In this document: piece by piece, positions 1-20,000 of the stretch
How the letters are laid out: every line of letters begins with the position of its first letter
Position numbering within the stretch: position 1 is the stretch's first letter
Assembly (NCBI GenBank): GCA_965178125.1
Contig: OZ237763.1
Span: 861,870-881,869, forward strand
Length of the DNA stretch: 20,000 nt
Direction: 5' to 3'
Source of the DNA: Bilabrum cf. latius
Taxonomy: Eukaryota
The notes under the pieces: generated by a model
Told to the model about the DNA's origin: nothing
What the model saw: the letters and a program-made list of their open reading frames with translations, nothing else
Databases searched by the model: none
Position numbers and translations under genes: made by a program

Positions 1-1966
1 GCCCGGGCAGTGTCGCTGTTGCAACTGGTGGCTTATCAGTTTTGCTAGCCGGTGTGGTGCTTGGCACTTTAGAGCGTTTAGCGGCGCTTGCTCCTTTACG
101 CCGTCTGGCAGCAGACCCACCACCTTTCTTCAGTGATGCAACAGCCGCTTTTCTTTTCTCTTCGTCCAACTGGGCCTCTGCAGCGGCTGCAGCCTCCGCA
201 TCCTTGGCTGCTTTCGAGAGTGCCTCGGTTCTGGCATCTTGCGCCGCTTTTGCAGCCCGCTCCAGCTCTACCATCCTTCGCTTCATCCTCTCATTCTCCT
301 CCTTTGCCCGCATCAGCTCCTGCTATGCTTGTGACGCCTTCACTTGCAGCGAGCTCGCTTGCTGGGCCACTGTGGAAGCCTCCATATCTCGCTGCGCGAG
401 CCTTGACTCTAGCTCCTGAATTCGCTTCTCTGCCTCTCTTGCAGCTGCCGACTTACCCCCCGAAAGCCTTCCAGGAAGCCTTTTCTGCTTAACCTTTGAT
501 TTTTCCTTGGGTTTCTTGGTCGCTGTTGGACTTGCCCCCTCCCCGCTGCCGGGGGTGCTCTTCGCGGCGGAGTCAGCTTCGGGCGCAGCCGGCGCGGTCG
601 TGATGCCGCCTGCAGATCGATGGACTGCACGACCGTTGCTTGCTTGTGCTTCGCTGCCACCATCAAACTGGAGTGTACTGCCAGGTTTCGAAGCTGTTTC
701 GCGTAAATCGGTACGGCTGGCGGCTGAACCCTGCTGCGCCACGACTGGCGATGCCTGGCTCTATCCAAGCGAGGCAGGCCAGTCACTTGTCAATTTCACA
801 CCTCTCTCTGCACTCTTCACGGGACTGATACCAACACCTGTAGCGAGTGCCCCGGCCTGGCCCGTGGTTGCCGAGCCCGAGGGTTGGTGCTCCAAAGAAG
901 ACTGATCCTGTTTCGATTCCAACGGATCTACGGATGAGCCGCCGGTAGAAGGCTCGAGACGTTCGGGGGCTGCTGCAGGGCTTGAAACGACCGGCTTGCC
1001 ACTGAATGCGATGTCGCCAGTCCCTACCTGTTTTGCGTCATCAGACTTCGAGTCTCCTGCTTGCGCACGACCTGGCTGTGCCACTCTGGACTCAACCTCA
1101 CCATTGTCTCCATTGCGAGCGAGGACAAGAACTTCGGTTTCACGCTAGTCGTGCCCCCTGGCGGGTCCATCGCCGCTATCCTCCCGCCTTTCGCCGCCGT
1201 CGAGCTCTGCTGCAGCGTCCTCGTCCTCGTCCTCGTCCATTGGAACCAGAGGCCTCTCGCTTGCCCGGCGTAACCAAGCCATCCACTCCTTGCCCATCTC
1301 TTCTGTCGGCGCCCTAAACTAAAGTGATCGCGGCTTGCTTATAACTGGGTCACTTGTGAGCTCGGGATCCCCGCGGAGCTGGCAGCTGACTGTGAACACA
1401 GCGTTGAACGGCACGCCTCGAGCCCCGGCACCGGAGGCTGCCCCCTTTGCTTCCCCTGACTCGCCAGCAGTCACCTCCAGCTCTGATATCTTGCATCCAA
1501 GCAGGTCAACTTCACCAAGTGGTGGATCACTCTTCGATTTGCACCAGTACAGGCGACATCCACGCACTCGGCAGAAGCGGCGCTTCCAGCTGCCGCTGCC
1601 TGGAGAGGCACGTTTGTCCAGCCACCCGTCTCCGCTGACACCGGATCGGCTTGCTCCCCGCAACAAGGTCAGCCAAGACTGTAGATGCTACTCTGATGGC
1701 GCCTGAAACGCAAGTCGTCTGCCGAATGCATCGGCACAAGCAAGCATGTGATCACGATTGTGCACTGCCTTGCTCACCGCATCCACTATTCCACCGCACA
1801 CATTGACGTAACCTTTGATTGCCCCGAGCTTGCTGGGTGATTTGGGATCTTTTTCCGCGTAGTGTAGCACGCCATGTCGAAACAAGCATTGCCGCTGCTT
1901 CCACGATCGAATCCAGCTACCTTCTTTCTCGATCTCGCCCCGAAACTCGAAAGGACACGATATCAT
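1..1966 (-). CDS. Tandem PH-domain protein with low-complexity linker and coiled coil; 3'-partial; contains 5 in-frame TAG codons
   Basis: ORFs 1688-1966, 1319-1666, 761-1084 and 323-742 share one frame. Manual translation from ATG (1964-1966) to the window edge finds only TAG interruptions (1688, 1319, 1145, 761, 323). PH1: 'GEIEKEGSWIRSWKQRQCLF..LHY...AFQAPSE*HLQSWLTLL'. PH2: 'GWLDKR...SWKRRFCRV..LYW...PLGEVDL...SL*FRAPTEEMGKEWMAWL'. Coiled coil: 'EAEKRIQELESRLAQR...QA*QELMRAKEENERMKRRMVELE'. Confidence 0.88.
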
Positions 1967-2130
1967 TGTATAAGTTAAGTCAAGAGCTCGCTCAACTGGT
2001 CATCAACCACGCTCTGGCTCTTCAATTGAGGGAGTTGCGGGCCGTCATATCTCGTCTAAGTGCTCGCAACTATCAGAGGCAGCCGTTTCGAACGATCCTG
2101 ACGCTCAGAGAGTGCCCAGCTGGGGTCATC
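1967..2130. promoter_or_regulatory. 164-bp intergenic region between head-to-head genes; probable bidirectional promoter
   Basis: Lies between the PH-gene ATG (1966, minus) and the BBS7 ATG (2131, plus). The call is positional; no specific motif was identified. Confidence 0.5.
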
Positions 2131-5100
2131 ATGGAGGTTCACATGTCATCTAGAGATTTGTTTCGCGTTGGACCTGTAGGCTACCGGGGTACGCTGCAGG
2201 TCCTTCCGAAAGGTAAAAAATCGAAAGTGAGTTATTTGCCTGCAAATGTATAGTCCTTCAGAGAGCTGTGTTCAACATTTTTGCAGATTCAAATTAAGTC
2301 CATATATCTTGCAGCCAAAAGTGGTCATTGGTGATGATTCAGGGTCAGTTCATTGCATAGAAGTCGACAAAGGAGTTGCAAAAGTGAGCGAGAGCAGAAC
2401 CATTCGCACTGAACCACGCTTTTAGTAAGTATTTCGTTGCGGTGGTTGACTTACCATTTTACGGCATGTTTTGTCCTCTCGTTCACAGAGAGCCTTCAAG
2501 ACTGATGCAAGCTCAAAGCCGGTCTCCTCGGTGACACTCGGTGGGGCCCCGACAAAGAAAGACAGAGTCTTCTACTCCACCTCTCAAACCATCACTGGGG
2601 TATCGAAGAAAGGAAAAGAGTTTTTCCGTTTCGATACGACACTCTCGGAGACAATAACTTCATCGTTCTCTGAAGAGACGAGGCTGTGGCTAGCGGCATC
2701 CACGGACTACGGTCTGTTCGACAACGGAACAGAAATGGAGTCTTACGCCGCACCAGATGCTATCCAAGACCTTGCAGTCGCAAATGTGACAAGAGACACG
2801 GAACCTGACGCAGTCCTTGCTTGCAAAGACGGGGCCGTAAGAGTGATCGCGGCGGGGTCGTCCGTCCTCGAGTACCGCCAGGGCAGCGGAACCGTGAGCG
2901 CGGGCTCCTCGGCAGCTGGTGCCGCAGCAGCCGCGGCATCTATCGGTGGTGGCGGCAGTGCAAGCGCTGCTGCTGCTGGGGCTCGGTCGGCCGGCGGTGT
3001 ATCGGGCGCCCGAAGCGTTCACTACTACCACCCTACTCTGCTGCGCGGAGAGTCTGCCTCGCTGCCCGCCTCTTCCGCTGCAGCCAAGGAGATGGCCAGC
3101 TCTTTGCCTGCCGGAAGCACCATCCCTGCCCCTCGAGCCGGACGCGGTCACCTGCCTCCGCCCCTGAGTCCGAGTCGCGCGAGGCATTTCCTGGTGGGCT
3201 CCGGGGCGGGGAGCGTGGCTCTGCTGCTTGCAGCCAGCGATGCAGTGCAGCCGCGGTGGACGCTGATGCCTTCTCGCGGGAGGGCGGGAGGTGGCACCGT
3301 GAACGCGATCACCTCGCTGGATGTGACTGGGGACGGCAGTCTGGACGTGGTGGTGGGCAGGGACGACGGGAGCGTGGATGTGCTGGGCGCGGAGGCAGGC
3401 CCACACGACCCCGCGGTGGTGTTCTCGCACCAGGTCGGGGACGCAGTGCAGAGCCTGCAAGCAGCTGCGGTACCCTCACCCGGTGACGGCGAGGTGCTGG
3501 CCGTGTCATTCTCGGGCAAGCTGGTGTCGCTGACCACTGAGTCGCTGTCAGCTGCGGCGGAGGGGGACAGCTACGGGCGCAGCAAGGAGGTGGTGGAGCG
3601 GGAGGCCAGAGTAGTGGCGCTCCGGTCCGAGATGAGTGCCTTGGAGAAGCAGGTGGAGAAGCAGCGATAGAGCATGTTGGATGCTTGGAAGAGCAGCGGG
3701 TTCTCCACGCCGGCCCTGGAGGCCATCGAGCAGGCGGCGGGGGCGGCGGGGGGTACGGGTGCGGGTGCGGGTGGGGGTGTCGCGAATGCAGGTGTGGTGG
3801 GCCAGGCCGCGGGACTAATGGCGCTTGCAGAGCCAGTCACTGCCGAGTGCCGATTGGAGGTGGATGAGGCAACTGCCAGCTACAGGATCGCGGTTGAATC
3901 TGCCTCGCTGGTAGAGAGCGTATCGTTGCTCAGCCCGGTGCCTCTGGAGATTCTCAAGACGGATCACAGCGCCAATGCCATCGTGTCCAAGACACAGCAG
4001 GAGGCGGCAAGGGGGGCCCAGGCAGCCCCGGCTAGCGGTCCGGAGGAGGCCAAGCCGGACCCACATGAGGATGCGTACGGCCCGGCGGGTTGCGACAAGT
4101 GGTCCTCTGTTCACACATTCCGATGCCAGGAACTCTCGCACAGGCTAGAACTGAGGGCGAGGGCCAGGGAGGGTCAGACAGGCGACGTTGAGGTGGTGGT
4201 CATCGCAGAACCTGGGGCGGCCGGGCGGCAGGCAGCTGCGGTCGAGACTGTCCGCATCCGTCCGCTGTCACTCCACTGCAGGTGCAGCGACAGCGCATTC
4301 GATGACGCAGTGCAAGCAGGCGCGAGCGCACCTGCAGGAGACGACCCCTCGCAGTCATGGCTCGCGGAAGCGGGGGCCAAGGCGCAAGCAGCCGCTGCCT
4401 CGCATGACTCGCAGGGGGCTCTGGTCGTTCGCGGGGAGTTCTCGCTTGGAAGGGCTCACGACTGGATCGAGCAGCTGCTTCCAGGTGTGCCCACACGCGC
4501 CGATACTGAGTCCGCCGCAGCTCGCTACGCGGAGCACGCGGCCACAGAGCGAGGCGTGCATGCCGGAGCCTCTGCGTCGGAAGTTGGTAAGCTGATGCCG
4601 CTGTCCGCGACGACTGGTGGCGCCGCAGATTCAGATGGAGCCTCAAGCGTTGAGGCTTCTGCAGCAAGTGGCCGGGGAGGAGGGCCGTCCTCTCGAGCAG
4701 TTCTCGTGTTCAGGAACTCGTTGGTGGGAACGCTGCTGCGCGCTGACTACTGCCGCGGTGAGATGGTGCTGCGGTCGTGCAACGCATCGTCCTTGGCGAT
4801 CGCGAGGGATTGGCTGCTCCAGCGCGCAGCAGCAGACAAGCTGAGCCTACAGGTGGACTGGCACATGCCTACTGCGTCTCTCAGGGCGGCTTGGGGCATG
4901 CTACACCCTCGGCTTCGATACGCCGCGTCGCTTTCAAAGCGAGCTGACCTGGCTGATGCTGTCAAGGAAGTAGCATTGTAGGAGGACGGCGACAGACCAT
5001 GGTTGTCGCAGGAGCTTAAAGACGTACTGCAGCACGGTAGCAGGTACAGGCGTGAGCTAGAGTCGCAACCCAACAAGCTTGAGGCACTGCAGTGTGTGCT

Positions 5101-5305
5101 GGAGGACCTCTTCATGCATCACCACAAGGCTCTCGGCGGTGACGTGTCAGCCCACGTTGAGGAACTGATGGCAGCCGCCAAAGAGGCCTACGAGTTCAAG
5201 TCGGAGGATGCTGCGGTCCAAGTTGGGTTCTCGGCTAGAGCCGACATGGGCAAAGTGGCACATGACTAGATGCTTGCTCTGCTAGAGCAATCTGGGGGTG
5301 ACTGA
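2131..5305 (+). CDS. BBS7: Bardet-Biedl syndrome 7 protein (BBSome subunit); join(2131..2226,2315..2383,2489..5305), about 993 aa, with 3 in-frame TAG codons
   Basis: Recalled BBS7 motifs appear in the expected order: 'MEVHMSSRDLFRVG', 'KVVIGDDSGSVHC', 'FKT...VTLGG', 'ITGVSKKGKEFFRFDTTLSETI', 'AVLACKDGAVRVI', 'DVTGDGSLDVVVGRDDGSVDV', 'FSGKLVSLTTE', 'TFRCQE..RLEL', 'IRPLSLHCR', 'GEFSLGRAHDWI', 'FRNSLVGTLL', 'LEDLF'. In-frame TAG at 3668, 4979 and 5267; the first TGA is at 5303-5305. The gene would end at 5269 if the last TAG is a true stop. Confidence 0.93.
2227..2314 (+). other. Spliceosomal intron 1 of BBS7 (88 bp)
   Basis: GTGAGT donor and ...tcttgcAG acceptor. Removal joins 'KGKKSK' to 'PKVVIGDD' in frame. 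Confidence 0.85.
2384..2488 (+). other. Spliceosomal intron 2 of BBS7 (105 bp)
   Basis: GTGAGC donor, a pyrimidine tract and cacAG acceptor. Removal joins 'DKGVAK' to 'RAFKT' in frame. Confidence 0.85.
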
Positions 5306-5359
5306 TTCAGGATCTGAAACCTGTCTCGGGATTTCTTTTCATATAAAGGATGTACGTTC

Positions 5360-5645
5360 CGGGGCTCACTCAGCCCACCTCCCATGCAGCCCAACCTCCA
5401 TCCGGGGCGCACCCAGCCCACTTCCCATGCAGCCCAACCTCCATCCGGGGCGCACCCAGCCCACTTCCCATACAGCCCAACCTCCATCCGGGGCGGACCC
5501 GGCCCACATCCCACGCAGCCCAACCTCCATCCGGGGCGCACCCAGCCCACCTCCCATGCAGCCCAACCTCCATCCGGGGCGCACCCAGCCCACTTCCCAT
5601 GCAGCCCAACCTCCATCTGGGGCGCACCCAGCCCACCTCCCATCC
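5360..5645. repeat. 43-bp C-rich minisatellite, about 6.5 copies
   Basis: Unit cagcccacytcccatgcagcccaacctccatccggggcgcacc; starts at 5371, 5414, 5457 and onward. Confidence 0.95.
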
Positions 5646-5682
5646 GTGACCCCACAGATCTTGTCGTGTAGTTGACTCGGAA

Positions 5683-5718
5683 TAGGGTTAGGGTTAGGGT
5701 TAGGGTTAGGGTTAGGGT
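5683..5718 (+). repeat. Internal telomere tract 1, (TTAGGG)x6
   Basis: Direct reading. Confidence 0.97.
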
Positions 5719-7212
5719 ATCAGGGGGTCAACTTATACTTAGGGTCGGCCATTTTCGGCTTTTACGCTAGCGCGGTTCAGGGAACAAGACCCATATATTC
5801 TGATTGGGCATGCTTTAAAACCTAGGTTACAACTCCGAGTCGGGTCATAACTCTCCGCGGCGCCGCGGTTCCGCAGGGTTAGTGAAATCCGTCAGGGCCG
5901 TGTGCCGCCATGGGGTGGATCCGGAGTCGATATGTATAGACACCATTGTGTGCCCCGCGATGTGTACATACGATTCGACACTTGAAACGCAGCGATTGCA
6001 TGTGTTCCGGCCGAGATATGGAGGACATCCGACTTTTTTGCGCAGGTCGGATCTCCAAAATCAGTCGGAGATCCGACCTATGCGTTCGGGCGTGTCCAGG
6101 TCTACAGATGAGCGTTTGATGTTTGGTTTTCGATACAGAAGATGTATCGGGGTCCATGCCACCCGAGGAACACACACCAGGTGGTGTCAGGTACCGCGGC
6201 GCCGCGGTTCCGCAGGGTCAGTGAAATCCGTCAGGGCCGTGTGCCGCCATGGGGTGGATCCGGAGTCGATATGTATAGACACCATTGTGTGCCCCGCGAT
6301 GTGTACATACGATTCGACACTTGAAACGCAGCGATTGCATGTGTTCCGGCCGAGATATGGAGGACATCCGACTTTTTTGCGCAGGTCGGATCTCCAAAAT
6401 CAGTCGGAGATCCGACCTATGCGTTCGGGCGTGTCCAGGTCTACAGATGAGCGTTTGATGTTTGGTTTTCGATGCAGAAGATGTATCGGGGTCCATGCCA
6501 CCCGAGGAACACACACCAGGTGGTGTCAGGTACCGCGGCGCCGCGGTTCCGCAGGGTCAGTGAAATCCGTCAGGGCCGTGTGCCTCCATGGGGTGGATCC
6601 GGAGTCGATATGTATAGACACCATTGTGTGCCCCGCGATGTGTACATACGATTCGACACTTGAAACGCAGCGATTGCATGTGTTCCGGCCGAGATATGGA
6701 GGACATCCGACTTTTTTGCGCAGGTCGGATCTCCAAAATCAGTCGGAGATCCGACCTATGCGTTCGGGCGTGTCAAGGTCTACAGATGAGCGTTTGATGT
6801 TTGGTTTTCGATGCAGAAGATGTATCGGGGTCCATGCCACCCGAGGAACACACACCAGGTGGTGTCAGGTACCGCGGCGCCGCGGTTCCGCAGGGTCAGT
6901 GAAATCCGTCAGGGCCGTGTGCCTCCATGGGGTGGATCCGGAGTCGATATGTATAGACACCATTGTGTGCCCCGCGATGTGTACATACGATTCGACACTT
7001 GAAACGCAGCGATTGCATGTGTTCCGGCCGAGATATGGAGGACATCCGACTTTTTTGCGCAGGTCGGATCTCCAAAATCAGTCGGAGATCCGACCTATGC
7101 GTTCGGGCGTGTCCAGGTCTACAGATGAGCGTTTGATGTTTTGTTTTCGATGCAGAAGATGTATCGGGGTCCATGCCACCCGGGGAACACACACCAGGTG
7201 GTGTTAGGTACC
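5719..7212. repeat. Cassette A: ~136-bp unique leader plus 4 copies of a 339-bp tandem repeat
   Basis: Units start with ccgcggcgccgcggttccgcagg at 5855, 6194, 6533 and 6872; copies are near-identical. Confidence 0.95.
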
Positions 7213-7213
7213 T

Positions 7214-7495
7214 TTAGGGTTAGGGTTGGGTTAGGGTTAGGGTTAGGGTTAGGGTTAGGGTTAGGGTTAGGGTTAGGGTTAGGGTTAGGGTTAGGGTTAG
7301 GGTTAGGGTTAGGGTTAGGGTTAGGGTTAGGGTTAGGGTTAGGGTTAGGGTTAGGGTTAGGGTTAGGGTTAGGGTTAGGGTTAGGGTTAGGGTTAGGGTT
7401 AGGGTTAGGGTTAGGGTTAGGGTTAGGGTTAGGGTTAGGGTTAGGGTTAGGGTTAGGGTTAGGGTTAGGGTTAGGGTTAGGGTTAGGGTTAGGGT
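7214..7495 (+). repeat. Internal telomere tract 2, about 47 TTAGGG repeats
   Basis: Direct reading; one TTGGG variant near the proximal end. Confidence 0.97.
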
Positions 7496-8224
7496 ATCTA
7501 ATATAAAGTCAGGGACAGGGTCGGGGAAAAAATATTTTCATCTTCATTTTTTTGTCGAAAATGTGCCCTCTGCGATCTCAGCAACTAGAATAGGTATGAA
7601 GATGATTCAAACTGTTTTGGGATGGCCTAGGGCCATATCATGGGGCAAATGTTCCCCAGGTTCCGTTTTGACCGCGCGGCGACGATACTGGCTGATGAAG
7701 ATTTACATGCCGAAAATGTGCCCTCTGCGATCTCAGCAACTAGAATAGGTATGAAGATGATTCAAACTGTTTTGGGATGGCCTAGGGCCATATCATGGGG
7801 CAAATGTTCCCCAGGTTCCGTTTTGACCGTGCGGCGACGATACTGGCTGATGAAGATTTACATGCCGAAAATGTGCCCTCTGCGATCTCAGCAACTAGAA
7901 TAGGTATGAAGATGATTCAAACTGTTTTGGGACGGCCTAGGGCCATATCATGGGGCAAATGTTCCCCAGGTTCCGTTTTGACCGCGCGGCGACGATACTG
8001 GCTGATGAAGATTTACATGCCGTAAATGTGCCCTCTGCGATCTCAGCAACTAGAATAGGTATGAAGATGATTCAAACTGTTTTGGGACGGCCTAGGGCCA
8101 TATCATGGGGCAAATGTTCCCCAGGTTCCGTTTTGACCGCGCGGCGACGATACTGGCTGATGAAGATTTACATGCCGAAAATGTGCCCTCTGCGATCTCA
8201 GCAACTAGAATAGGTATGAAGATG
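7496..8224. repeat. Cassette B: ~60-bp leader plus about 4.3 copies of a 155-bp tandem repeat
   Basis: Units start with cg(a/t)aaatgtgccctctgcg at 7556, 7711, 7866, 8021 and 8176 (last one truncated). Confidence 0.95.
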
Positions 8225-8376
8225 GTTAGGGTTAGGGTTAGGGTTAGGGTTAGGGTTAGGGTTAGGGTTAGGGTTAGGGTTAGGGTTAGGGTTAGGGTTA
8301 GGGTTAGGGTTAGGGTTAGGGTTAGGGTTAGGGTTAGGGTTAGGGTTAGGGTTAGGGTTAGGGTTAGGGTTAGGGT
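8224..8376 (+). repeat. Internal telomere tract 3, about 25 TTAGGG repeats
   Basis: Direct reading. Confidence 0.97.
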
Positions 8377-9913
8377 ATCTGGGGGTCATGTTAGGATCGG
8401 GGCACGCCCATTTTTGCACCAAAAAATAAACCGTCGCACATTATATATATTTAGATAGCCCTTGATGCGTAGATATCCGTAAAAATTTTGCCTAGGGTCG
8501 ATTTCTCAATATTAAGCGAGATACGCGGAGGTCTAGGGTCACCATGGGAGCGTCAAATTTCAGGGGCCTGTTTGGGTTGTATGTGGATCGATTGGAGTGT
8601 GCATGCGTGTATGTGGTTGTTCCCTGTGGCCAACAATGTGGAATGCACCGCTCGTGTGCCCTGTCAGTGCTTCGGCGGCGCCGGTTCCGCAGGCGGCTTG
8701 AAATGGCTTGTGCGAGCGGTTTCGCCAAGGGGTCGATCCGGAGTCGATATTGTCAGGCCCCATCCGACGCGTCTCGATGCGTAGATATCCGTAAAAATTT
8801 TGCCTAGGGTCGATTTCTCAATATTAAGCGAGATACGCGGAGGTCTAGGGTTGGCAGGTGGGCGCCAGGACGGGTACTCAGGGGCTGTGTGAGCGGGCCT
8901 GTTTGGGTTGTATGTGGATCGATTGGAGTGTGCATGCGTGTATGTGGTTGTTCCCTGTGGCCAACAATGTGGAATGCACCGCTCGTGTGCCCTGTCAGTG
9001 CTTCGGCGGCGCCGGTTCCGCAGGCGGCTTGAAATGGCTTGTGCGAGCGGTTTCGCCAAGGGGTCGATCCGGAGTCGATATTGTCAGGCCCCATCCGACG
9101 CGTCTCGATGCGTAGATATCCGTAAAAATTTTGCCTAGGGTCGATTTCTCAATATTAAGCGAGATACGCGGAGGTCTAGGGTTGGCAGGTGGGCGCCAGG
9201 ACGGGTACTCAGGGGCTGTGTGAGCGGGCCTGTTTGGGTTGTATGTGGATCGATTGGAGTGTGCATGCGTGTATGTGGTTGTTCCCTGTGGCCAACAATG
9301 TGGAATGCACCGCTCGTGTGCCCTGTCAGTGCTTCGGCGGCGCCGGTTCCGCAGGCGGCTTGAAATGGCTTGTGCGAGCGGTTTCGCCAAGGGGTCGATC
9401 CGGAGTCGATATTGTCAGGCCCCATCCGACGCGTCTCGATGCGTAGATATCCGTAAAAATTTTGCCTAGGGTCGATTTCTCAATATTAAGCGAGATACGC
9501 GGAGGTCTAGGGTTGGCAGGTGGGCGCCAGGACGGGTACTCAGGGGCTGTGTGAGCGGGCCTGCTTGGGTTGTATGTGGATCGATTGGAGTGTGCATGTG
9601 TGTATGTGGTTGTTCCCTGTGGCCAACAATGTGGAATGCACCGCTCGTGTGCCCTGTCAGTGCTTCGGCGGCGCCGGTTCCGCAGGCGGCTTGAAATGGC
9701 TTGTGCGAGCGGTTTCGCCAAGGGGTCAATCCGGAGTCGATATTGTCAGGCCCCATCCGACGCGTCTCGATGCGTAGATATCCGTAAAAATTTTGCCTAG
9801 GGTCGATTTCTCAATATTAAGCGAGATACGCGGAGGTCTAGGGTTGGCAGGTGGGCGCCAGGACGGGTACTCAGGGGCTGTGTGAGCGGGCCTGTTTGGG
9901 TTGTATGTGGATC
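8377..9913. repeat. Cassette C copy 1: ~87-bp leader, a 312-bp variant first unit, then 331-bp repeats (about 4.4 units in total)
   Basis: Units start with gatgcgtagatatcc at 8464, 8776, 9107, 9438 and 9769; truncated at 9913 and followed by a single TTAGGG. Confidence 0.95.
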
Positions 9914-10012
9914 TTAGGGTTTTTTTATTGAGGTTTAGGGTTGGATCAGAAGAGTGAATCAGTGATATACATGGTTCGATTGGCAGTGAGGATTACTTTG
10001 AACTTAGGCATT

Positions 10013-10596
10013 TCAATGCTCCTCGCCCTCAGCTTGTGCTGCTGCGGCCGCTTGGCGGGCATCCAGGACTCCTGTGATGTAGGCCATGCGCTACTCCAGG
10101 CGTTCCAGCAGCCAGTCTGCATTCTCGCCTTCACGGACATCGCACATCCGGACCTGGTTTCCAGCTCTGCGCTTCTGCTTCCCGATCCTCTTGGAGTTAT
10201 CCTTGTACTTTTGAACCTCCTAGACGGTGATTGGGGCTGCACCTCCTGCTTGTGGTGCTGGCGGGACTGGTGCTTGACCTGCAGCTCCTGCAGCAGCTTG
10301 TGCTGGTGGGACTGGTGCTTGACCTGCAGCTCCTGCAGCAGCTTGTGCTGGTGGGACTGGTGCTTGACCTGCAGCTCCTGCAGCAGCTTGTTGGGCTGGT
10401 GGGGCTGGTGCTTGACCTGCTGCTCCTGCAGCAGCTTGTGCTGGTGGGACTGGTGCTTGACCTGCAGCTCCTGCAGCAGCTTGTGCTGGTGGGACTGGTG
10501 CTTGACCTGCAGCTCCTGCAGCAGCTTGTTGGGCTGGTGGGGCTGGTGCTTGACCTGCAGCTCCTGCAGCAGCTTGATGGGCTGGTGGTGCTGGAG
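10013..10596 (-). CDS. C-terminal fragment (~194 aa) of an unknown protein: Pro/Ala/Gln repeats plus a basic, helical tail; 2 in-frame TAG codons; no start codon
   Basis: Manual translation: (QAAAGAAGQAPVPPA-like)x7-PQAGGAAPITV*EVQKYKDNSKRIGKQKRRAGNQVRMCDVREGENADWLLERLE*RMAYITGVLDARQAAAAAQAEGEEH-TGA. TAG at 10220 and 10091. Repeat units of 45 and 48 bp preserve the frame. Not present in the supplied ORF track. Confidence 0.55.
10257..10595. repeat. 45/48-bp frame-preserving tandem repeat, about 7 copies
   Basis: Unit ctggtgggactggtgcttgacctgcagctcctgcagcagcttgtg, with +3-bp variants. Confidence 0.92.
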
Positions 10597-11208
10597 GGGT
10601 TAGGGTTAGGGTTAGGGTTAGGGTTAGGGTTAGGGTTAGGGTTAGGGTTAGGGTTAGGGTTAGGGTTAGGGTTAGGGTTAGGGTTAGGGTTAGGGTTAGG
10701 GTTAGGGTTAGGGTTAGGGTTAGGGTTAGGGTTAGGGTTAGGGTTAGGGTTAGGGTTAGGGTTAGGGTTAGGGTTAGGGTTAGGGTTAGGGTTAGGGTTA
10801 GGGTTAGGGTTAGGGTTAGGGTTAGGGTTAGGGTTAGGGTTAGGGTTAGGGTTAGGGTTAGGGTTAGGGTTAGGGTTAGGGTTAGGGTTAGGGTTAGGGT
10901 TAGGGTTAGGGTTAGGGTTAGGGTTAGGGTTAGGGTTAGGGTTAGGGTTAGGGTTAGGGTTAGGGTTAGGGTTAGGGTTAGGGTTAGGGTTAGGGTTAGG
11001 GTTAGGGTTAGGGTTAGGGTTAGGGTTAGGGTTAGGGTTAGGGTTAGGGTTAGGGTTAGGGTTAGGGTTAGGGTTAGGGTTAGGGTTAGGGTTAGGGTTA
11101 GGGTTAGGGTTAGGGTTAGGGTTAGGGTTAGGGTTAGGGTTAGGGTTAGGGTTAGGGTTAGGGTTAGGGTTAGGGTTAGGGTTAGGGTTAGGGTTAGGGT
11201 TAGGGTTA
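10597..11208 (+). repeat. Long internal telomere tract, about 102 TTAGGG repeats
   Basis: Direct reading; no variant repeats seen. Confidence 0.97.
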
Positions 11209-13910
11209 CAGTACCATCCTAGGCCAGGCCCGGGCGCCGCGAAAGTATCATGTTCCGCAAAAAGTATCATGTTCCGCAATGACGGCGGTGCCGCGCAGTG
11301 TCCAAGTGGTCGCAAGATCGCGCCGAGGCGGATCTTGGCCAGTTGCAGAGATGCAAGCAGTCGACAAGAGGTGCGAGTGGTTGGCAATGCATATTTGGTG
11401 TATGATTATGCGTGTCTGCTTGGTTTGCAATGAATCTCGGCCTCGGTCTCCTCGGTGGTGCGGCTCATGGGTGACGAACACCCAGGGGGCTGCACGGGAT
11501 GGACGCGCACCCGGCGAGTCTGGACCAAACCGCGTCGTGCAAATTGGGTTTGCCAAGGAGGTGTGCCCTGCTGTGTTTCGCCCGCGAGAATAGGGGGTTG
11601 TCTCCCCGTCGGGCAGGTATTCCATCCAGCTCGCCCGTCCGTGACTGAGACAGCACGGGCCGCGACAAGTGCGCGAGCCCGGGGATCAAGTCAGCGGCCG
11701 ATGGCAGCGAGCCGGCATGAAGCGCGTGCACGAGGAGCTTGCGCTCCCCATGCACTGCCTGCCCCACCTCATTGCGGATCTGGGACATCAGGTTCATCGT
11801 GTTGCCACACACACCTCCACACTCGACGATCGGATCTACAGAGACACCTGTCCCGGGATGCTGCTCCTCGTCATTGGCCTGCTCCTTCTCGCCCCGGGGG
11901 CACGCGCTGCCTCGAAGCACGCACCCGCGCTCCCGCCCGACTCAAGGACTGAGTGCTGGGAGGGTGCGCGGGCAGCCGCGTGAGAGGATGACGGGCGTGC
12001 CGCCGAAGGCCGAGTCCAGGAGCTGGGGACGGGACGCATCGTTGGGACTGCCCTGAAGAGACCAAAGAATCAACCGCCATCCGTACGGAACCCTATATGG
12101 TCGGCCGGTCTGACTCTCTGCTCGCCCACCGCACGGATCTGCTCAGTTCCATGCAATGTTTGCCAGAAGCGGCGAGAGGGTCTCATCAGCACAGGTGGGT
12201 CCTAAAAGCTGCCTGCAATGCATAAGAAAAGAATAAAACGGTTGAAAATAAATTAATAGCCCCTCGATGCATGGCAACATACCCGAGTGCTGCCATGAAA
12301 ACCGGACAACGCACAAGCACGTCAGCAGACCAGCGACCTTCCCATTCAGATGCCAGAACCTAACACAAATACAAAGCAAACAAACTGAATGAATACAATA
12401 GAATCAAAATACCTGGCGGTTGTTTTACTCGGGCTATGCTGTACCTGGCTGTTCTGTCTGCAAGCGCCATCGCGCGCCCCAATGAGGCGAGACCTAAGCA
12501 GAGCTACAGCAGCATGCCACCTTGGACACACCGCGATATACGGCAGTAAATGGTATTAAATATTAATCCCAACAGGTTCCAGGACACTTGAGACTGTCTG
12601 TGGTGCTGAGAGGTATGGTTGCGCTAGATTTCGCAAACGGTTGTGAACAGCGGAACCAGTTAGCTAGGCGGCGCGGCGTCTTAGGCTGCACAATGCTGCC
12701 AGACTCAGCAGTGAATACCGTCAATCTCGCATCATAGTTTCAAACGATGAGTACTTTTGTTGTATGTGTTAGTGGAAGTCAGTCCGAGTGCATTGGTTGG
12801 GCGAATATTTGAGATTCTCTCACCTTCGCAGTTGCTGCAGCTACTAGATGTATACGCGGACCATCCACTACTTCGCAATATGAAAACGCTGGCGCATTAT
12901 TTCCGCATGAATTCAACTGAGTCCCCTTCCACACGCTAGGCAGCAAGCATCACTATTCACCAGTGGACTTGCCAAAGTCCCTACTACTCCTGTAGTGGCT
13001 GCCTGGGCTGATTCCGATGTCCGGGTTATCAATACCGTCCTAGCACGCTGCCAGAAACCTTCATTGAATGCAATCAAATATCATTGCCTGAGGTGCCGGT
13101 CATTTGGATAGAGAAGGAAGTCACATTTCTGCTGGCTGGCACTGAGGTGCTGCCTCAAGGACGTCGTCCTACATGTTGGGACCAAGCAAATCATACTCCG
13201 TTCGGTGGATTGATCGTTGTACAAGTTTTAAGACTTTATATATCGAGTTACCATGCGGACCACAAAGCGGACCGATCCCAAGGTGGCACATCCGCATCTC
13301 CACCCAGTGGGGCTCCCAACCAGCTTGCCCCAGCATAGCCACCATGGCCCCATCCATCGCCCACACACCCAACCAGCTTGCCCCGGCACAGCCACCACGG
13401 CCCCCTCCATCGCCCACACACCCAACCAGCTTGCCCCAGCACAGCCACCACGGCCCCCTCCATCGCCCGCACTCCCGACCTGCTTGCCCCAGCACAGCCA
13501 CCATAGCCCCCATCCATCGCCCACACACCCTACTTGCTCCGGCACAGCCACCATGGCCCCCTCCATCGCCCACACACCCAACCAGCTTGCCCCAGCACAG
13601 CCACCATGGCTCCATCCATCGCCCACACACCCAACCAGCTTGCCCCAGCACAGCCACCATGGCTCCATCCATCGCCCACACACCCAACCAGCTTGCCCCG
13701 GCACAGCCACCATAGCCCCCATCCATCGCCCACACACCCTACTTGCTCCGGCACAGCCACCATGGCCCCATCCATCGCCCACACACCCAACCAGCTTGCC
13801 CCAGCACAGCCACCATGGCTCCATCCATCGCCCACACACCCAACCAGCTTGCCCCGGCACAGCCACCATAGCCCCCATCCATCGCCCACACACCCTACTT
13901 GCTCCGGCAC
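11209..13910. mobile_element. Cassette E copy 1: 2.7-kb telomere-embedded element with no recognisable protein, ending in a minisatellite
   Basis: Bounded on both sides by TTAGGG tracts and repeated at an offset of 2830 bp. The duplication is seen directly; mobility is inferred. Confidence 0.6.
13315..13910. repeat. ~53-bp C-rich minisatellite with shorter variant units, about 11.5 copies
   Basis: Unit cccaaccagcttgccccagcacagccaccatggccccatccatcgcccacaca; starts at 13315, 13368, 13421 and onward. Confidence 0.93.
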
Positions 13911-14038
13911 AGGGTTAGGGTTAGGGTTAGGGTTAGGGGTTAGGGTTAGGGTTAGGGTTAGGGTTAGGGTTAGGGTTAGGGTTAGGGTTAGGGTTAGGGT
14001 TAGGGTAAGGGTTAGGGTTAGGGTTAGGGTTAGGGTTA
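13911..14038 (+). repeat. Internal telomere tract, about 21 repeats, with TTAGGGG and TAAGGG variants
   Basis: Direct reading. Confidence 0.97.
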
Positions 14039-16740
14039 CAGTACCATCCTAGGCCAGGCCCGGGCGCCGCGAAAGTATCATGTTCCGCAAAAAGTATCAT
14101 GTTCCGCAATGACGGCGGTGCCGCGCAGTGTCCAAGTGGTCGCAAGATCGCGCCGAGGCGGATCTTGGCCAGTTGCAGAGATGCAAGCAGTCGACAAGAG
14201 GTGCGAGTGGTTGGCAATGCATATTTGGTGTATGATTATGCGTGTCTGCTTGGTTTGCAATGAATCTCGGCCTCGGTCTCCTCGGTGGTGCGGCTCATGG
14301 GTGACGAACACCCAGGGGGCTGCACGGGATGGACGCGCACCCGGCGAGTCTGGACCAAACCGCGTCGTGCAAATTGGGTTTGCCAAGGAGGTGTGCCCTG
14401 CTGTGTTTCGCCCGCGAGAATAGGGGGTTGTCTCCCCGTCGGGCAGGTATTCCATCCAGCTCGCCCGTCCGTGACTGAGACAGCACGGGCCGCGACAAGT
14501 GCGCGAGCCCGGGGATCAAGTCAGCGGCCGATGGCAGCGAGCCGGCATGAAGCGCGTGCACGAGGAGCTTGCGCTCCCCATGCACTGCCTGCCCCACCTC
14601 ATTGCGGATCTGGGACATCAGGTTCATCGTGTTGCCACACACACCTCCACACTCGACGATCGGATCTACAGAGACACCTGTCCCGGGATGCTGCTCCTCG
14701 TCATTGGCCTGCTCCTTCTCGCCCCGGGGGCACGCGCTGCCTCGAAGCACGCACCCGCGCTCCCGCCCGACTCAAGGACTGAGTGCTGGGAGGGTGCGCG
14801 GGCAGCCGCGTGAGAGGATGACGGGCGTGCCGCCGAAGGCCGAGTCCAGGAGCTGGGGACGGGACGCATCGTTGGGACTGCCCTGAAGAGACCAAAGAAT
14901 CAACCGCCATCCGTACGGAACCCTATATGGTCGGCCGGTCTGACTCTCTGCTCGCCCACCGCACGGATCTGCTCAGTTCCATGCAATGTTTGCCAGAAGC
15001 GGCGAGAGGGTCTCATCAGCACAGGTGGGTCCTAAAAGCTGCCTGCAATGCATAAGAAAAGAATAAAACGATTGAAAATAAATTAATAGCCCCTCGATGC
15101 ATGGCAACATACCCGAGTGCTGCCATGAAAACCGGACAACGCACAAGCACGTCAGCAGACCAGCGACCTTCCCATTCAGATGCCAGAACCTAACACAAAT
15201 ACAAAGCAAACAAACTGAATGAATACAATAGAATCAAAATACCTGGCGGTTGTTTTACTCGGGCTATGCTGTACCTGGCTGTTCTGTCTGCAAGCGCCAT
15301 CGCGCGCCCCAATGAGGCGAGACCTAAGCAGAGCTACAGCAGCATGCCACCTTGGACACACCGCGATATACGGCAGTAAATGGTATTAAATATTAATCCC
15401 AACAGGTTCCAGGACACTTGAGACTGTCTGTGGTGCTGAGAGGTATGGTTGCGCTAGATTTCGCAAACGGTTGTGAACAGCGGAACCAGTTAGCTAGGCG
15501 GCGCGGCGTCTTAGGCTGCACAATGCTGCCAGACTCAGCAGTGAATACCGTCAATCTCGCATCATAGTTTCAAACGATGAGTACTTTTGTTGTATGTGTT
15601 AGTGGAAGTCAGTCCGAGTGCATTGGTTGGGCGAATATTTGAGATTCTCTCACCTTCGCAGTTGCTGCAGCTACTAGATGTATACGCGGACCATCCACTA
15701 CTTCGCAATATGAAAACGCTGGCGCATTATTTCCGCATGAATTCAACTGAGTCCCCTTCCACACGCTAGGCAGCAAGCATCACTATTCACCAGTGGACTT
15801 GCCAAAGTCCCTACTACTCCTGTAGTGGCTGCCTGGGCTGATTCCGATGTCCGGGTTATCAATACCGTCCTAGCACGCTGCCAGAAACCTTCATTGAATG
15901 CAATCAAATATCATTGCCTGAGGTGCCGGTCATTTGGATAGAGAAGGAAGTCACATTTCTGCTGGCTGGCACTGAGGTGCTGCCTCAAGGACGTCGTCCT
16001 ACATGTTGGGACCAAGCAAATCATACTCCGTTCGGTGGATTGATCGTTGTACAAGTTTTAAGACTTTATATATCGAGTTACCATGCGGACCACAAAGCGG
16101 ACCGATCCCAAGGTGGCACATCCGCATCTCCACCCAGTGGGGCTCCCAACCAGCTTGCCCCAGCATAGCCACCATGGCCCCATCCATCGCCCACACACCC
16201 AACCAGCTTGCCCCGGCACAGCCACCACGGCCCCCTCCATCGCCCACACACCCAACCAGCTTGCCCCAGCACAGCCACCACGGCCCCCTCCATCGCCCGC
16301 ACTCCCGACCTGCTTGCCCCAGCACAGCCACCATAGCCCCCATCCATCGCCCACACACCCTACTTGCTCCGGCACAGCCACCATGGCCCCCTCCATCGCC
16401 CACACACCCAACCAGCTTGCCCCAGCACAGCCACCATGGCTCCATCCATCGCCCACACACCCAACCAGCTTGCCCCAGCACAGCCACCATGGCTCCATCC
16501 ATCGCCCACACACCCAACCAGCTTGCCCCGGCACAGCCACCATAGCCCCCATCCATCGCCCACACACCCTACTTGCTCCGGCACAGCCACCATGGCCCCA
16601 TCCATCGCCCACACACCCAACCAGCTTGCCCCAGCACAGCCACCATGGCTCCATCCATCGCCCACACACCCAACCAGCTTGCCCCGGCACAGCCACCATA
16701 GCCCCCATCCATCGCCCACACACCCTACTTGCTCCGGCAC
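14039..16740. mobile_element. Cassette E copy 2 (near-identical direct repeat of 11209-13910)
   Basis: All ORFs recur at +2830. One substitution was noticed (12241 g vs 15071 a). Confidence 0.6.
16145..16740. repeat. ~53-bp minisatellite in cassette E copy 2
   Basis: Same as 13315-13910. Confidence 0.93.
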
Positions 16741-16812
16741 AGGGTTAGGGTTAGGGTTAGGGTTAGGGGTTAGGGTTAGGGTTAGGGTTAGGGTTAGGGT
16801 TAGGGTTAGGGT
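16741..16812 (+). repeat. Internal telomere tract, about 12 repeats
   Basis: Direct reading; same TTAGGGG variant position as the tract at 13911. Confidence 0.97.
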
Positions 16813-19512
16813 ATCTGGGGGTCATGTTAGGATCGGGGCACGCCCATTTTTGCACCAAAAAATAAACCGTCGCACATTATATATATTTAGATAGCCCTTG
16901 ATGCGTAGATATCCGTAAAAATTTTGCCTAGGGTCGATTTCTCAATATTAAGCGAGATACGCGGAGGTCTAGGGTCACCATGGGAGCGTCAAATTTCAGG
17001 GGCCTGTTTGGGTTGTATGTGGATCGATTGGAGTGTGCATGCGTGTATGTGGTTGTTCCCTGTGGCCAACAATGTGGAATGCACCGCTCGTGTGCCCTGT
17101 CAGTGCTTCGGCGGCGCCGGTTCCGCAGGCGGCTTGAAATGGCTTGTGCGAGCGGTTTCGCCAAGGGGTCGATCCGGAGTCGATATTGTCAGGCCCCATC
17201 CGACGCGTCTCGATACGTAGATATCCGTAAAAATTTTGCCTAGGGTCGATTTCTCAATATTAAGCGAGATACGCGGAGGTCTAGGGTTGGCAGGTGGGCG
17301 CCAGGACGGGTACTCAGGGGCTGTGTGAGCGGGCCTGTTTGGGTTGTATGTGGATCGATTGGACCATGCATGTGTGTATGTGGTTGTTCCCTGTGGCCAA
17401 CAATGTGGAATGCACCGCTCGTGTGCCCTGTCAGTGCTTCGGCGGCGCCGGTTCCGCAGGCGGCTTGAAATGGCTTGTGCGAGCGGTTTCGCCAAGGGGT
17501 CGATCCGGAGTCGATATTGTCAGGCCCCATCCGACGCGTCTCGATGCGTAGATATCCGTAAAAATTTTGCCTAGGGTCGATTTCTCAATATTAAGCGAGA
17601 TACGCGGAGGTCTAGGGTTGGCAGGTGGGCGCCAGGACGGGTACTCAGGGGCTGTGTGAGCGGGCCTGTTTGGGTTGTATGTGGATCGATTGGAGTGTGC
17701 ATGCGTGTATGTGGTTGTTCCCTGTGGCCAACAATGTGGAATGCACCGCTCGTGTGCCCTGTCAGTGCTTCGGCGGCGCCGGTTCCGCAGGCGGCTTGAA
17801 ATGGCTTGTGCGAGCGGTTTCGCCAAGGGGTCGATCCGGAGTCGATATTGTCAGGCCCCATCCGACGCGTCTCGATGCGTAGATATCCGTAAAAATTTTG
17901 CCTAGGGTCGATTTCTCAATATTAAGCGAGATACGCGGAGGTCTAGGGTTGGCAGGTGGGCGCCAGGACGGGTACTCAGGGGCTGTGTGAGCGGGCCTGT
18001 TTGGGTTGTATGTGGATCGATTGGAGTGTGCATGCGTGTATGTGGTTGTTCCCTGTGGCCAACAATGTGGAATGCACCGCTCGTGTGCCCTGTCAGTGCT
18101 TCGGCGGCGCCGGTTCCGCAGGCGGCTTGAAATGGCTTGTGCGAGCGGTTTCGCCAAGGGGTCGATCCGGAGTCGATATTGTCAGGCCCCATCCGACGCG
18201 TCTCGATGCGTAGATATCCGTAAAAATTTTGCCTAGGGTCGATTTCTCAATATTAAGCGAGATACGCGGAGGTCTAGGGTTGGCAGGTGGGCGCCAGGAC
18301 GGGTACTCAGGGGCTGTGTGAGCGGGCCTGTTTGGGTTGTATGTGGATCGATTGGAGTGTGCATGCGTGTATGTGGTTGTTCCCTGTGGCCAACAATGTG
18401 GAATGCACCGCTCGTGTGCCCTGTCAGTGCTTCGGCGGCGCCGGTTCCGCAGGCGGCTTGAAATGGCTTGTGCGAGCGGTTTCGCCAAGGGGTCGATCCG
18501 GAGTCGATATTGTCAGGCCCCATCCGACGCGTCTCGATGCGTAGATATCCGTAAAAATTTTGCCTAGGGTCGATTTCTCAATATTAAGCGAGATACGCGG
18601 AGGTCTAGGGTTGGCAGGTGGGCGCCAGGACGGGTACTCAGGGGCTGTGTGAGCGGGCCTGCTTGGGTTGTATGTGGATCGATTGGACCATTCATGTGTG
18701 TATGTGGTTGTTCCCTGTGGCCAACAATGTGGAATGCACCGCTCGTGTGCCCTGTCAGTGCTTCGGCGGCGCCGGTTCCGCAGGCGGCTTGAAATGGCTT
18801 GTGCGAGCGGTTTCGCCAAGGGGTCGATCCGGAGTCGATATTGTCAGGCCCCATCCGACGCGTCTCGATGCGTAGATATCCGTAAAAATTTTGCCTAGGG
18901 TCGATTTCTCAATATTAAGCGAGATACGCGGAGGTCTAGGGTTGGCAGGTGGGCGCCAGGACGGGTACTCAGGGGCTGTGTGAGCGGGCCTGTTTGGGTT
19001 GTATGTGGATCGATTGGAGTGTGCATGCGTGTATGTGGTTGTTCCCTGTGGCCAACAATGTGGAATGCACCGCTCGTGTGCCCTGTCAGTGCTTCGGCGG
19101 CGCCGGTTCCGCAGGCGGCTTGAAATGGCTTGTGCGAGCGGTTTCGCCAAGGGGTCGATCCGGAGTCGATATTGTCAGGCCCCATCTGACGCGTCTCGAT
19201 GCGTAGATATCCGTAAAAATTTTGCCTAGGGTCGATTTCTCAATATTAAGCGAGATACGCGGAGGTCTAGGGTTGGCAGGTGGGCGCCAGGACGGGTACT
19301 CAGGGGCTGTGTGAGCGGGCCTGTTTGGGTTGTATGTGGATCGATTGGAGTGTGCATGCGTGTATGTGGTTGTTCCCTGTGGCCAACAATGTGGAATGCA
19401 CCGCTCGTGTGCCCTGTCAGTGCTTCGGCGGCGCCGGTTCCGCAGGCGGCTTGAAATGGCTTGTGCGAGCGGTTTCGCCAAGGGGTCGATCCGGAGTCGA
19501 TATTGTCAGGCC
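16813..19512. repeat. Cassette C copy 2: same leader and variant first unit, then 331-bp repeats (about 8 units in total)
   Basis: Matches 8377 onward at an offset of 8436. Units start at 16900, 17212, 17543, 17874, 18205, 18536, 18867 and 19198 (last one truncated). Confidence 0.95.
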
Positions 19513-20000
19513 TAGCAGGGTTAGGGTTAGTTTAGGGGTTAGGGTTAGGTTAGGGTTAGGGTTAGGGTTAGGGTTAGGGTTAGGGTTAGGGTTAGGGTTA
19601 GGGTTAGGGTTAGGGTTAGGGTTAGGGTTAGGGTTAGGGTTAGGGTTAGGGTTAGGGTTAGGGTTAGGGTTAGGGTTAGGGTTAGGGTTAGGGTTAGGGT
19701 TAGGGTTAGGGTTAGGGTTAGGGTTAGGGTTAGGGTTAGGGTTAGGGTTAGGGTTAGGGTTAGGGTTAGGGTTAGGGTTAGGGTTAGGGTTAGGGTTAGG
19801 GTTAGGGTTAGGGTTAGGGTTAGGGTTAGGGTTAGGGTTAGGGTTAGGGTTAGGGTTAGGGTTAGGGTTAGGGTTAGGGTTAGGGTTAGGGTTAGGGTTA
19901 GGGTTAGGGTTAGGGTTAGGGTTAGGGTTAGGGTTAGGGTTAGGGTTAGGGTTAGGGTTAGGGTTAGGGTTAGGGTTAGGGTTAGGGTTAGGGTTAGGGT
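19513..20000 (+). repeat. Probable terminal telomere (TTAGGG)n with degenerate first repeats, running off the window
   Basis: tagcagggttagggttagtttaggggttagggttaggttaggg followed by perfect repeats to base 20000. It could be another internal tract. Confidence 0.9.

Follow-up and report, generated by a model that had tools for sequence, protein, structure and literature searches.

UAG as a probable glutamine codon, separate from UAA, in nuclear genes of Bilabrum cf. latius and a syntenic relative

We counted 54 in-frame TAG and no in-frame TAA codons in six frames (5,843 codons) of two species, this organism and a relative, whose nuclear code is very probably one in which UAG encodes glutamine and UAA is not a sense codon, similar to NCBI table 15. 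The window, by which we mean the whole 20,000-nt stretch of DNA that was analysed, comprises two validated genes, for a PH-domain protein and for BBS7, next to a subtelomere. The UAG-only glutamine reading of the original prediction is thereby supported, with the decisive evidence coming from outside the window, from a syntenic contig of the relative.

Genes and transcripts of the window

The PH-domain protein gene (positions 2–1966, reverse strand, within a frame of 2–1999) starts at an ATG at 1964–1966, matches the Pfam PH domain with an E-value of 3.2e-20 and extends beyond the start of the window. Its 655 codons within the window include five in-frame TAGs (1688–1690, 1319–1321, 1145–1147, 761–763, and 323–325) and no in-frame TAA or TGA, and its orthologue in the relative was found by tblastn (E 5e-123). 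The BBS7 gene lies on the forward strand and has three exons (2131–2226, 2315–2383, and 2489–5305), which are joined at 2226/2315 and 2383/2489 into an in-frame CDS of 993 aa that begins with the ATG at 2131 and ends with the TGA at 5303–5305. Exon 3 carries four BBS7 Pfam domains (best E 1.9e-49) and three TAGs at 3668–3670, 4979–4981, and 5267–5269 (codons 449, 886, and 982). Two further TAGs are located in a third frame (10013–10600, reverse strand) that ends with the TGA at 10013–10015. This frame encodes a Pro/Ala/Gln-rich tandem repeat and a 75-aa unique tail, is mostly a 45-nt tandem repeat (10255–10576) abutting an interstitial TTAGGG block (10597–11208), matched no family in a Pfam search and has no counterpart on the contig of the relative. 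We do not regard it as a validated gene; counts for validated window genes refer to BBS7 and the PH-domain protein only. Our recount of the three frames gave the same 10 TAG and 0 TAA as first reported, plus two TGA, both terminal; these are the two ends that had been read as TGA, and a gene terminated by TAA is absent from the window, as had been noted. The other frames of 1–5305 contain 17–36 TGA and 2–9 TAA each, and the long frames free of TGA and TAA are thus not due to chance.

The two BBS7 introns of 88 nt (2227–2314) and 105 nt (2384–2488) have GT..AG borders and are skipped in contigs of the runs X5, X6, and X7 from two studies, while they are retained in the DNA run X1, which bears out the short introns that had been proposed. 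Contigs of X5–X7, which are not recorded as RNA runs and which we took for RNA by a guess whose sole support is the GT..AG joints, cover 1–1974, 2489–3731, and 3784–5320 unbroken and with 0 differences from the DNA. All eight TAGs of the validated genes lie within these spliced, transcript-like contigs and match the DNA exactly, so they are present, unedited, in spliced RNA. UAG is a sense codon in both validated window genes. A database fragment identical to the window BBS7 (P0062) stops exactly before TAG codon 982, which is the cut expected from a standard-code gene caller. Such callers truncate the proteins of this organism at each TAG, and database fragments of 81 and 222 aa show these cuts.

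The remainder of the window (5358–20000) is subtelomere and telomere, with tandem repeat families of 43, 339, 155, 331, and 53 nt, six interstitial TTAGGG blocks and a 2.8-kb duplicated segment. It ends in a terminal TTAGGG array (19517–20000), in agreement with the telomere type that had been named. No recognisable genes were found in this region and no convincing coding sequence in the frames of 11200–13300; tRNA and Rfam scans returned nothing in the window or on the contig of the relative.

Gene ends in the window and in a relative

The relative is represented by a metagenome contig (L001) that is syntenic with the window and was retrieved by an exhaustive protein search with BBS7; a word-index search gave only two hits. 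Its open frames encode SMC4, the PH protein, BBS7 (74% identical to that of the window), and an ABCB-type transporter. Internal and terminal stop codons were counted in these conserved genes, a check that the original prediction had proposed: the four genes contain 46 TAG and 0 TAA in 4,238 codons, and all four end with TGA. The stretch at 13950–14537 of this contig, in which the end of a fifth gene was sought, contained nothing coding. Across both species TGA is found at six of six observed gene ends (five of five validated ones) and TAA at none. That UAA is retained as a stop is accordingly an assumption of the preferred code. At four of the five validated ends, including three of four in the relative, a second in-frame TGA follows three to six codons downstream, in the window at 5315–5317 on the forward strand, four codons past the BBS7 stop; no in-frame TAA occurs within six codons after any of the five. 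With a background of 1.1–2.0% TGA per position, the probability of tandem TGA at four or more of five ends is about 4e-4, calculated post hoc.

These ends would also fit a code in which UAG is glutamine, UAA has in effect no assignment and UGA alone serves as stop, with an eRF1 narrowed to UGA, as in ciliates of the table 6 type, and a CUA-anticodon tRNA as the only decoder. We consider this unlikely. It agrees with the use of TGA at all six ends, the five validated ones being from four gene families, and with the tandem TGAs, as tandem stops are described as enriched in ciliates with reassigned stops (PMC6879139). However, six ends are a very small sample that includes two orthologous pairs, TGA is preferred in GC-rich genomes anyway, the tandem pattern was noticed post hoc, and UAA is given as the dominant stop in the two best-studied UAG-only eukaryotes (PMC5304391). 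The uniform TGA ends and the tandem TGAs nevertheless raise a testable question, namely if UAA is still a stop. Under the preferred code, in which UAG is glutamine and UAA is simply not a sense codon, a tRNA-Gln with the anticodon CUA would decode UAG and would be unable to pair with UAA, and eRF1 would no longer compete effectively at UAG, following the account of Panek et al. 2017 (PMC5304391).

A context-dependent code with UAG as both sense and stop codon, resembling the use of UAR in Condylostoma and Blastocrithidia, is very unlikely. The last TAG of the window BBS7 (5267–5269) is only 11 codons ahead of the TGA and by sequence alone could be a stop, but the residues past it align with the C-termini of homologues, none of the six ends requires TAG and all frames finish at TGA.

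Absence of UAA from sense positions and the amino acid at UAG

The ciliate-type code, in which UAA and UAG both encode glutamine, is NCBI table 6. The two validated window genes have 8 TAG and 0 TAA in 1,648 sense codons, are rich in G+C at third positions and use CAG and CAA at 41:16. Were TAA as frequent relative to TAG as CAA is to CAG, finding none beside eight TAGs would have a probability of about 0.07 (0.72^8), so that the uncoupling of UAG from UAA is not demonstrable from the window by itself; the caution that the sample is small was well placed. The assertion that CAA is freely used stands only in part: 20 of the 36 CAA codons derive from the repeat in the third frame, but in the relative CAA is about as frequent as CAG. 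There, A- and G-ending codons are used in similar numbers (CAG:CAA 65:59, GAG:GAA 154:124, AAG:AAA 97:77), 1,099 of the 4,238 codons have A at the third position, and a complete lack of TAA beside 46 TAGs has a probability of 0.524^46 (P about 1e-13). The missing TAA is thus not explicable by composition. Neither species uses UAA as a sense codon. A table 6 code in which TAA is only infrequent owing to a high G+C content at third positions, a reading to which the GC3-rich window genes and their P of about 0.07 would lend themselves, is highly improbable in view of the balanced CAA and CAG in the relative, and no in-frame UAA stands at glutamine columns beside UAG in either species (TAA:TAG 0:54); this reading is close to refuted.

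The amino acid was assessed by scoring 20 residues at 23 TAG columns that are occupied in at least 60% of homologues. Summed log-odds were highest for Gln at +9.5 nats, followed by Ala as the next best at −7.6, compared to −14.0 for Ser, −22.2 for Glu, and −38.7 for Leu, and the score per column was 0.41 for TAG, with 0.31 and 0.22 for the CAG and CAA controls, respectively. Among TAG columns at which glutamine is conserved, it accounts for 101 of 103 residues at the Q-loop of the ABC transporter, where it is also found in four solved ABCB nucleotide-binding-domain alignments, 51 of 103 at ABC column 266, 72 of 80 at SMC4 hinge column 77, which is Q in yeast Smc4 too, and 40 of 80 at SMC4 column 170. 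In BBS7, Q occupies 53 of 113 homologues at column 844 and 42 of 113 at column 865 of the relative; under the TAG at 4979 of the window BBS7, 53 of 113 homologues have Q, and the codon of the relative at this site is CAA. At seven TAG sites with at least 8 of 10 identical flanking positions, the partner codons in the other species are CAA, CAA, CAG, CAG, GCC, CAC, and GAG, and none of the eight window TAGs is a TAG in the relative. Just 6 of the 23 columns have Q as their most frequent residue. Five TAG columns have one residue at 70% or more, which is Q in two and P (80/106), N (55/70), or L (81/103) in the others; the controls behave like TAG, with Q in one of four (CAG) and one of three (CAA) such columns. 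Judged from these alignments, UAG reads as glutamine and behaves like CAG and CAA. A reading as another amino acid, for instance Leu (its meaning in the rhizarian exLh), Ser (its meaning in Scotinosphaera), or Glu, could draw on the three strongly conserved columns in which P, N, or L is commonest, but it has scarcely any credibility beside the summed scores and the near-invariant Q-loop.

Between the two species, identity of BBS7 at first, second, and third codon positions is 0.75, 0.86, and 0.34 over 911 codons, a pattern that indicates purifying selection on the window BBS7. An unchanged code, with the TAGs explained by introns, errors of sequencing, RNA editing, or nonsense mutations in subtelomeric genes undergoing decay, is already refuted: the genes do adjoin the subtelomere and a C-to-T change at CAG yields TAG, but every TAG is kept in spliced contigs with an exact DNA match, the 54 TAGs come without any internal TGA, TAA, or frameshift in the 5,843 codons of the six frames, third codon positions are saturated with first and second ones conserved, and the subtelomeric setting is documented for the window genes and not for those of the relative.

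Lineage, origin and comparison with known codes

The best named matches of SMC4 were from Ochromonadaceae, diatoms, Tribonema, and Hondaea, and that of BBS7 was Platysulcus tardus. In an SMC4 tree of 30 rows, sampled without alveolates, rhizarians, and oomycetes and with the query row flagged for unusual composition, ochrophytes are the sister group of the relative (SH-aLRT 95), and Hondaea falls outside (98). Single genes thus place the lineage probably among the stramenopiles. An affinity to green algae, suggested by Raphidocelis among the word-index BBS7 matches, was rejected on account of these stramenopile affinities, as was Amoeboaphelidium, whose changed code is described as UAR = Gln (PMC11687900). 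The view that the organism does not resemble a ciliate held, given the TTAGGG telomere on a long chromosome end and the stramenopiles nearest in SMC4 and BBS7. Together, these features make it likely that the change arose independently of those in Iotanema and in ciliates, in line with the independent origin that had been raised as a possibility.

In the full-text literature that we searched, papers on stramenopiles included, a scope that lies mostly outside subscription journals and covers articles without their supplements, no stramenopile was described as having reassigned UAG in its nuclear code. Only tentatively, and with a low probability, can the code be proposed as the first nuclear stop reassignment in a stramenopile lineage and as an intermediate, with UAG fully glutamine, UAA neither decoded nor terminating, and UGA as the sole stop with a tandem UGA as backup. 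If true, this intermediate would represent, in a living organism, the midway point between the standard code and the ciliate-type code. The system would be one more case of independent origin, from another supergroup, and has a second species at about 26% protein divergence and an assembly that reaches the telomere. With the two species and the assembly, one could examine directly which tRNA decodes UAG and whence it is derived, and how eRF1 distinguishes UAG from UAA.

The nuclear splits of UAG from UAA named in PMC5304391 and PMC11687900 are few and comprise Iotanema, Protocruzia, some phyllopharyngean ciliates, exLh, Scotinosphaera, and one oligohymenophorean. In Iotanema spirale (Fornicata), UAG is glutamine and the stops are UAA and UGA, with UAA dominant (Panek et al. 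2017, PMC5304391). It shares with our organism the reassignment of UAG alone, to glutamine, in a non-ciliate flagellate, and a CUA-anticodon tRNA would be the only decoder that spares UAA. In contrast, it belongs to an unrelated lineage, its dominant stop UAA is found at none of our six ends, all of which are TGA, and it is represented by a transcriptome only, compared to an assembly of a chromosome end and sequence from a second species here. Protocruzia tuzeti and two phyllopharyngean ciliate lineages, in which UAG and not UAA is described as glutamine (PMC11687900), have the identical codon table but are ciliates, unlike an organism with a long TTAGGG chromosome end and stramenopiles nearest in SMC4 and BBS7. 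The uncoupling of UAG and UAA in a non-ciliate nucleus is shared with the rhizarian exLh, in which UAG is leucine and UAA the dominant stop (PMC5304391), and with Scotinosphaera, in which UAG is serine (PMC5304391, PMC11687900); the amino acid differs, as reflected in the scores for Leu (−38.7) and Ser (−14.0) versus Gln (+9.5). With ciliates of the table 6 type our organism has in common UAG as glutamine, UGA as the terminator seen, and tandem UGAs resembling those described for such ciliates (PMC6879139), but it differs in that UAA is not a sense codon, with 0 TAA versus 54 TAG.

Window genes and the chromosome end

Recognisable genes in the window are confined to its first 5.3 kb. A PH-domain protein gene (minus strand; Pfam PH, E 3.2e-20) has its ATG at 1964–1966 and runs off the window start, and BBS7, encoding a subunit of the cilia BBSome (plus strand; four BBS7 Pfam domains, best E 1.9e-49), ends at TGA 5303–5305 with a spliced CDS of 993 codons plus TGA. 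The presence of BBS7 implies that the organism builds cilia. The underlying 939- and 666-codon frames were accepted as coding because they are free of TGA and TAA while the other frames of 1–5305 hold 17–36 TGA and 2–9 TAA each. The original prediction of a UAG-only reassignment rested on 10 in-frame TAG and no TAA in three frames, a count that we reproduced, and both visible ends under the recoded reading are TGA, as had been stated (5303–5305 and 10013–10015). The third frame (10013–10600, minus strand) was not counted among the validated genes: it matches no Pfam family, consists mostly of a 45-nt tandem repeat and lacks a counterpart in L001, a syntenic metagenome contig from a relative. 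Its repeat is Pro/Ala/Gln-rich and is joined by a charged 75-aa tail, and the frame directly abuts a TTAGGG block, as might result if a break had cut a gene down to its 3' part and telomere addition had then healed it. Without this frame, 8 TAG in 1,648 sense codons remain and 20 of 36 CAA are lost too (CAG:CAA 41:16). At this ratio the missing TAA in the window genes has P = 0.07, and the caveat that the sample is small was justified.

The 20-kb window is a chromosome end, and the TTAGGG telomere was found as a terminal array at 19517–20000. Six interstitial TTAGGG blocks have the same orientation (5686–5716, 7214–7495, 8224–8376, 10597–11208, 13911–14038, and 16735–16810), with tandem repeat families of 43, 339, 155, 331, and 53 nt between them. 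The 43-nt repeat (5358–5643, 6.7 copies) starts about 50 nt past the BBS7 stop and is related to the 53-nt family (13315–13895 and 16145–16725). Positions 11209–13982 equal 14039–16812 with one mismatch, a 2,774-nt (2.8-kb) head-to-tail duplication, each copy of which starts directly after a TTAGGG block. The arrangement resembles what repeated capping of older chromosome ends, followed by extension, would leave.

TAG codons in mature RNA and at a related locus

Contigs from four public sequencing runs were compared with window positions 1–5320. Run X1 provided a single DNA contig across the stretch; the contigs of X5, X6, and X7, from two studies, are presumably RNA-derived, a guess backed by their GT..AG joints. 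They omit exactly 2227–2314 and 2384–2488, both GT..AG, and are therefore regarded as spliced, the missing segments being BBS7 introns as short as predicted. The same contigs are unbroken over 1–1974, 2489–3731, and 3784–5320 with no letter differing from the window DNA. All eight TAGs of the validated window genes are thus present in mature RNA, which rules them out as intronic, as assembly errors or as edited sites. The window BBS7 transcript contig stops about 36 nt past the TGA, and 3' UTRs are very short.

An exhaustive protein search with BBS7 recovered an 81-aa fragment identical to window BBS7 that stops right before TAG codon 982, and two fragments at 76–78% identity located on 17.6-kb metagenome contigs. 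One of these metagenome contigs, L001 (14,537 bases, 53% G+C), is syntenic with the window, with the PH gene and BBS7 divergent in both; its other genes are an ABCB-type transporter and SMC4, of which the C-terminal half is present. Synteny stops after BBS7 (window 5306 onward vs L001 10946–14000), which is followed by the transporter in L001 and, as the last gene of the window, by subtelomere there. In L001 (2546–2678) SMC4 and PH converge, with only about 130 nt between their stops, and gene spacing is compact.

With TAG read as sense, L001 contains four open frames of 849, 1,637, 968, and 784 codons with 11, 16, 10, and 9 TAGs, respectively (46 in total, of which up to three fall at the frames' 5' ends in codons that stem from leader or intron sequence), and TGA solely as last codon. 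None of the four genes contains a TAA. Were TAA read like TAG and used at the rate of CAA, finding none beside 46 TAG would have P ~1e-13. Pseudogene decay is excluded, as BBS7 identity between the species by codon position (0.75, 0.86, and 0.34; 911 codons) shows that the genes are under purifying selection. A composition artefact is likewise excluded as the cause of the missing TAA, since A-ending codons are about as common as G-ending ones in L001 (CAA:CAG 59:65, GAA:GAG 124:154, AAA:AAG 77:97). TAG makes up 8/65 (12%) of Gln codons in the window genes vs 46/170 (27%) in the relative, which is lower in G+C.

Amino acid at UAG and termination

BBS7, SMC4, and the ABC transporter were aligned with 113, 80, and 103 homologues, respectively, and TAG columns filled in at least 60% of homologues were scored (23 of 32 TAG positions examined). 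Glutamine had the best summed log-odds (+9.5 nats), against Ala (−7.6), Ser (−14.0), Glu (−22.2), and Leu (−38.7), and the per-column score of TAG (0.41) is comparable to those of CAG (0.31) and CAA (0.22) in the same genes. The clearest TAG columns are the ABC Q-loop (Q in 101/103, and likewise in the alignments of four solved ABCB nucleotide-binding domains), SMC4 hinge column 77 (Q in 72/80 and in yeast Smc4), SMC4 column 170 (Q in 40/80), and ABC column 266 (Q in 51/103); the window BBS7 TAG at 4979 has Q in 53/113 homologues and is CAA in the relative. Against glutamine, Q is the commonest residue in just 6 of the 23 columns, and P, N or L takes its place in three columns of strong conservation. 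Columns under CAG and CAA, which are genuine Gln codons, scatter equally. Partner codons at seven TAG sites with well-conserved flanks are CAA, CAA, CAG, CAG, GCC, CAC, and GAG. No TAG position is common to window and relative, as expected with saturated synonymous sites.

The window was described as having no TAA-terminated gene, and L001 agrees: all six visible ends in both are TGA and none is TAA. A second in-frame TGA, noticed afterwards, lies 3–6 codons past the stop at four of the five validated ends: window BBS7 (+4, 5303–5317) and L001 SMC4 (+6, 2546–2566), PH (+3, 2678–2667, minus strand), and BBS7 (+3, 10943–10954); the ABC gene has none. TAA is absent within six codons of all five stops. 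The post-hoc P of tandem TGA is ~4e-4, with TGA at 1.1–2.0% of flank positions, a hint which suggests that most or all termination is by UGA.

Placement and known codes

The best named SMC4 matches are stramenopiles (Ochromonadaceae sp., diatoms, Tribonema, and Hondaea; 40–44% identity), and for BBS7 the best named match is Platysulcus tardus, a deep stramenopile. An SMC4 tree of 30 rows, sampled without alveolates, rhizarians, and oomycetes and with a query row of unusual composition, joins the relative to an ENA protein (SH-aLRT 99); the two together are sister to ochrophytes (95), and Hondaea branches outside (98). These single-gene results are a lead towards stramenopiles, and on this evidence the organism is neither a ciliate nor a fornicate. 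Full-text searches of a literature collection that omits most subscription journals, and term look-ups in a stramenopile overview of 2024 and a preprint on Bigyromonadea, turned up no altered nuclear code among stramenopiles.

The interpretation that UAG alone has come to encode glutamine, in a lineage outside the ciliates, is supported, mainly by the L001 locus. Following an argument in PMC5304391, a tRNA with anticodon CUA would pair with UAG and mismatch UAA, and UAG recognition by eRF1 may be weakened. The code is a further case of an already known type, probably of independent origin. Among the cases described in PMC5304391 and PMC11687900, UAG alone encodes Gln in Iotanema spirale, Protocruzia tuzeti, and two phyllopharyngean ciliate lineages; UAG encodes Leu in the rhizarian exLh and some ciliates, and Ser in Scotinosphaera; and UAR encodes Gln in many ciliates, ulvophytes, Hexamita, Streblomastix, and Amoeboaphelidium. 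The dominant stop described there for Iotanema and exLh is UAA, whereas the ends observed here are all TGA (6/6).
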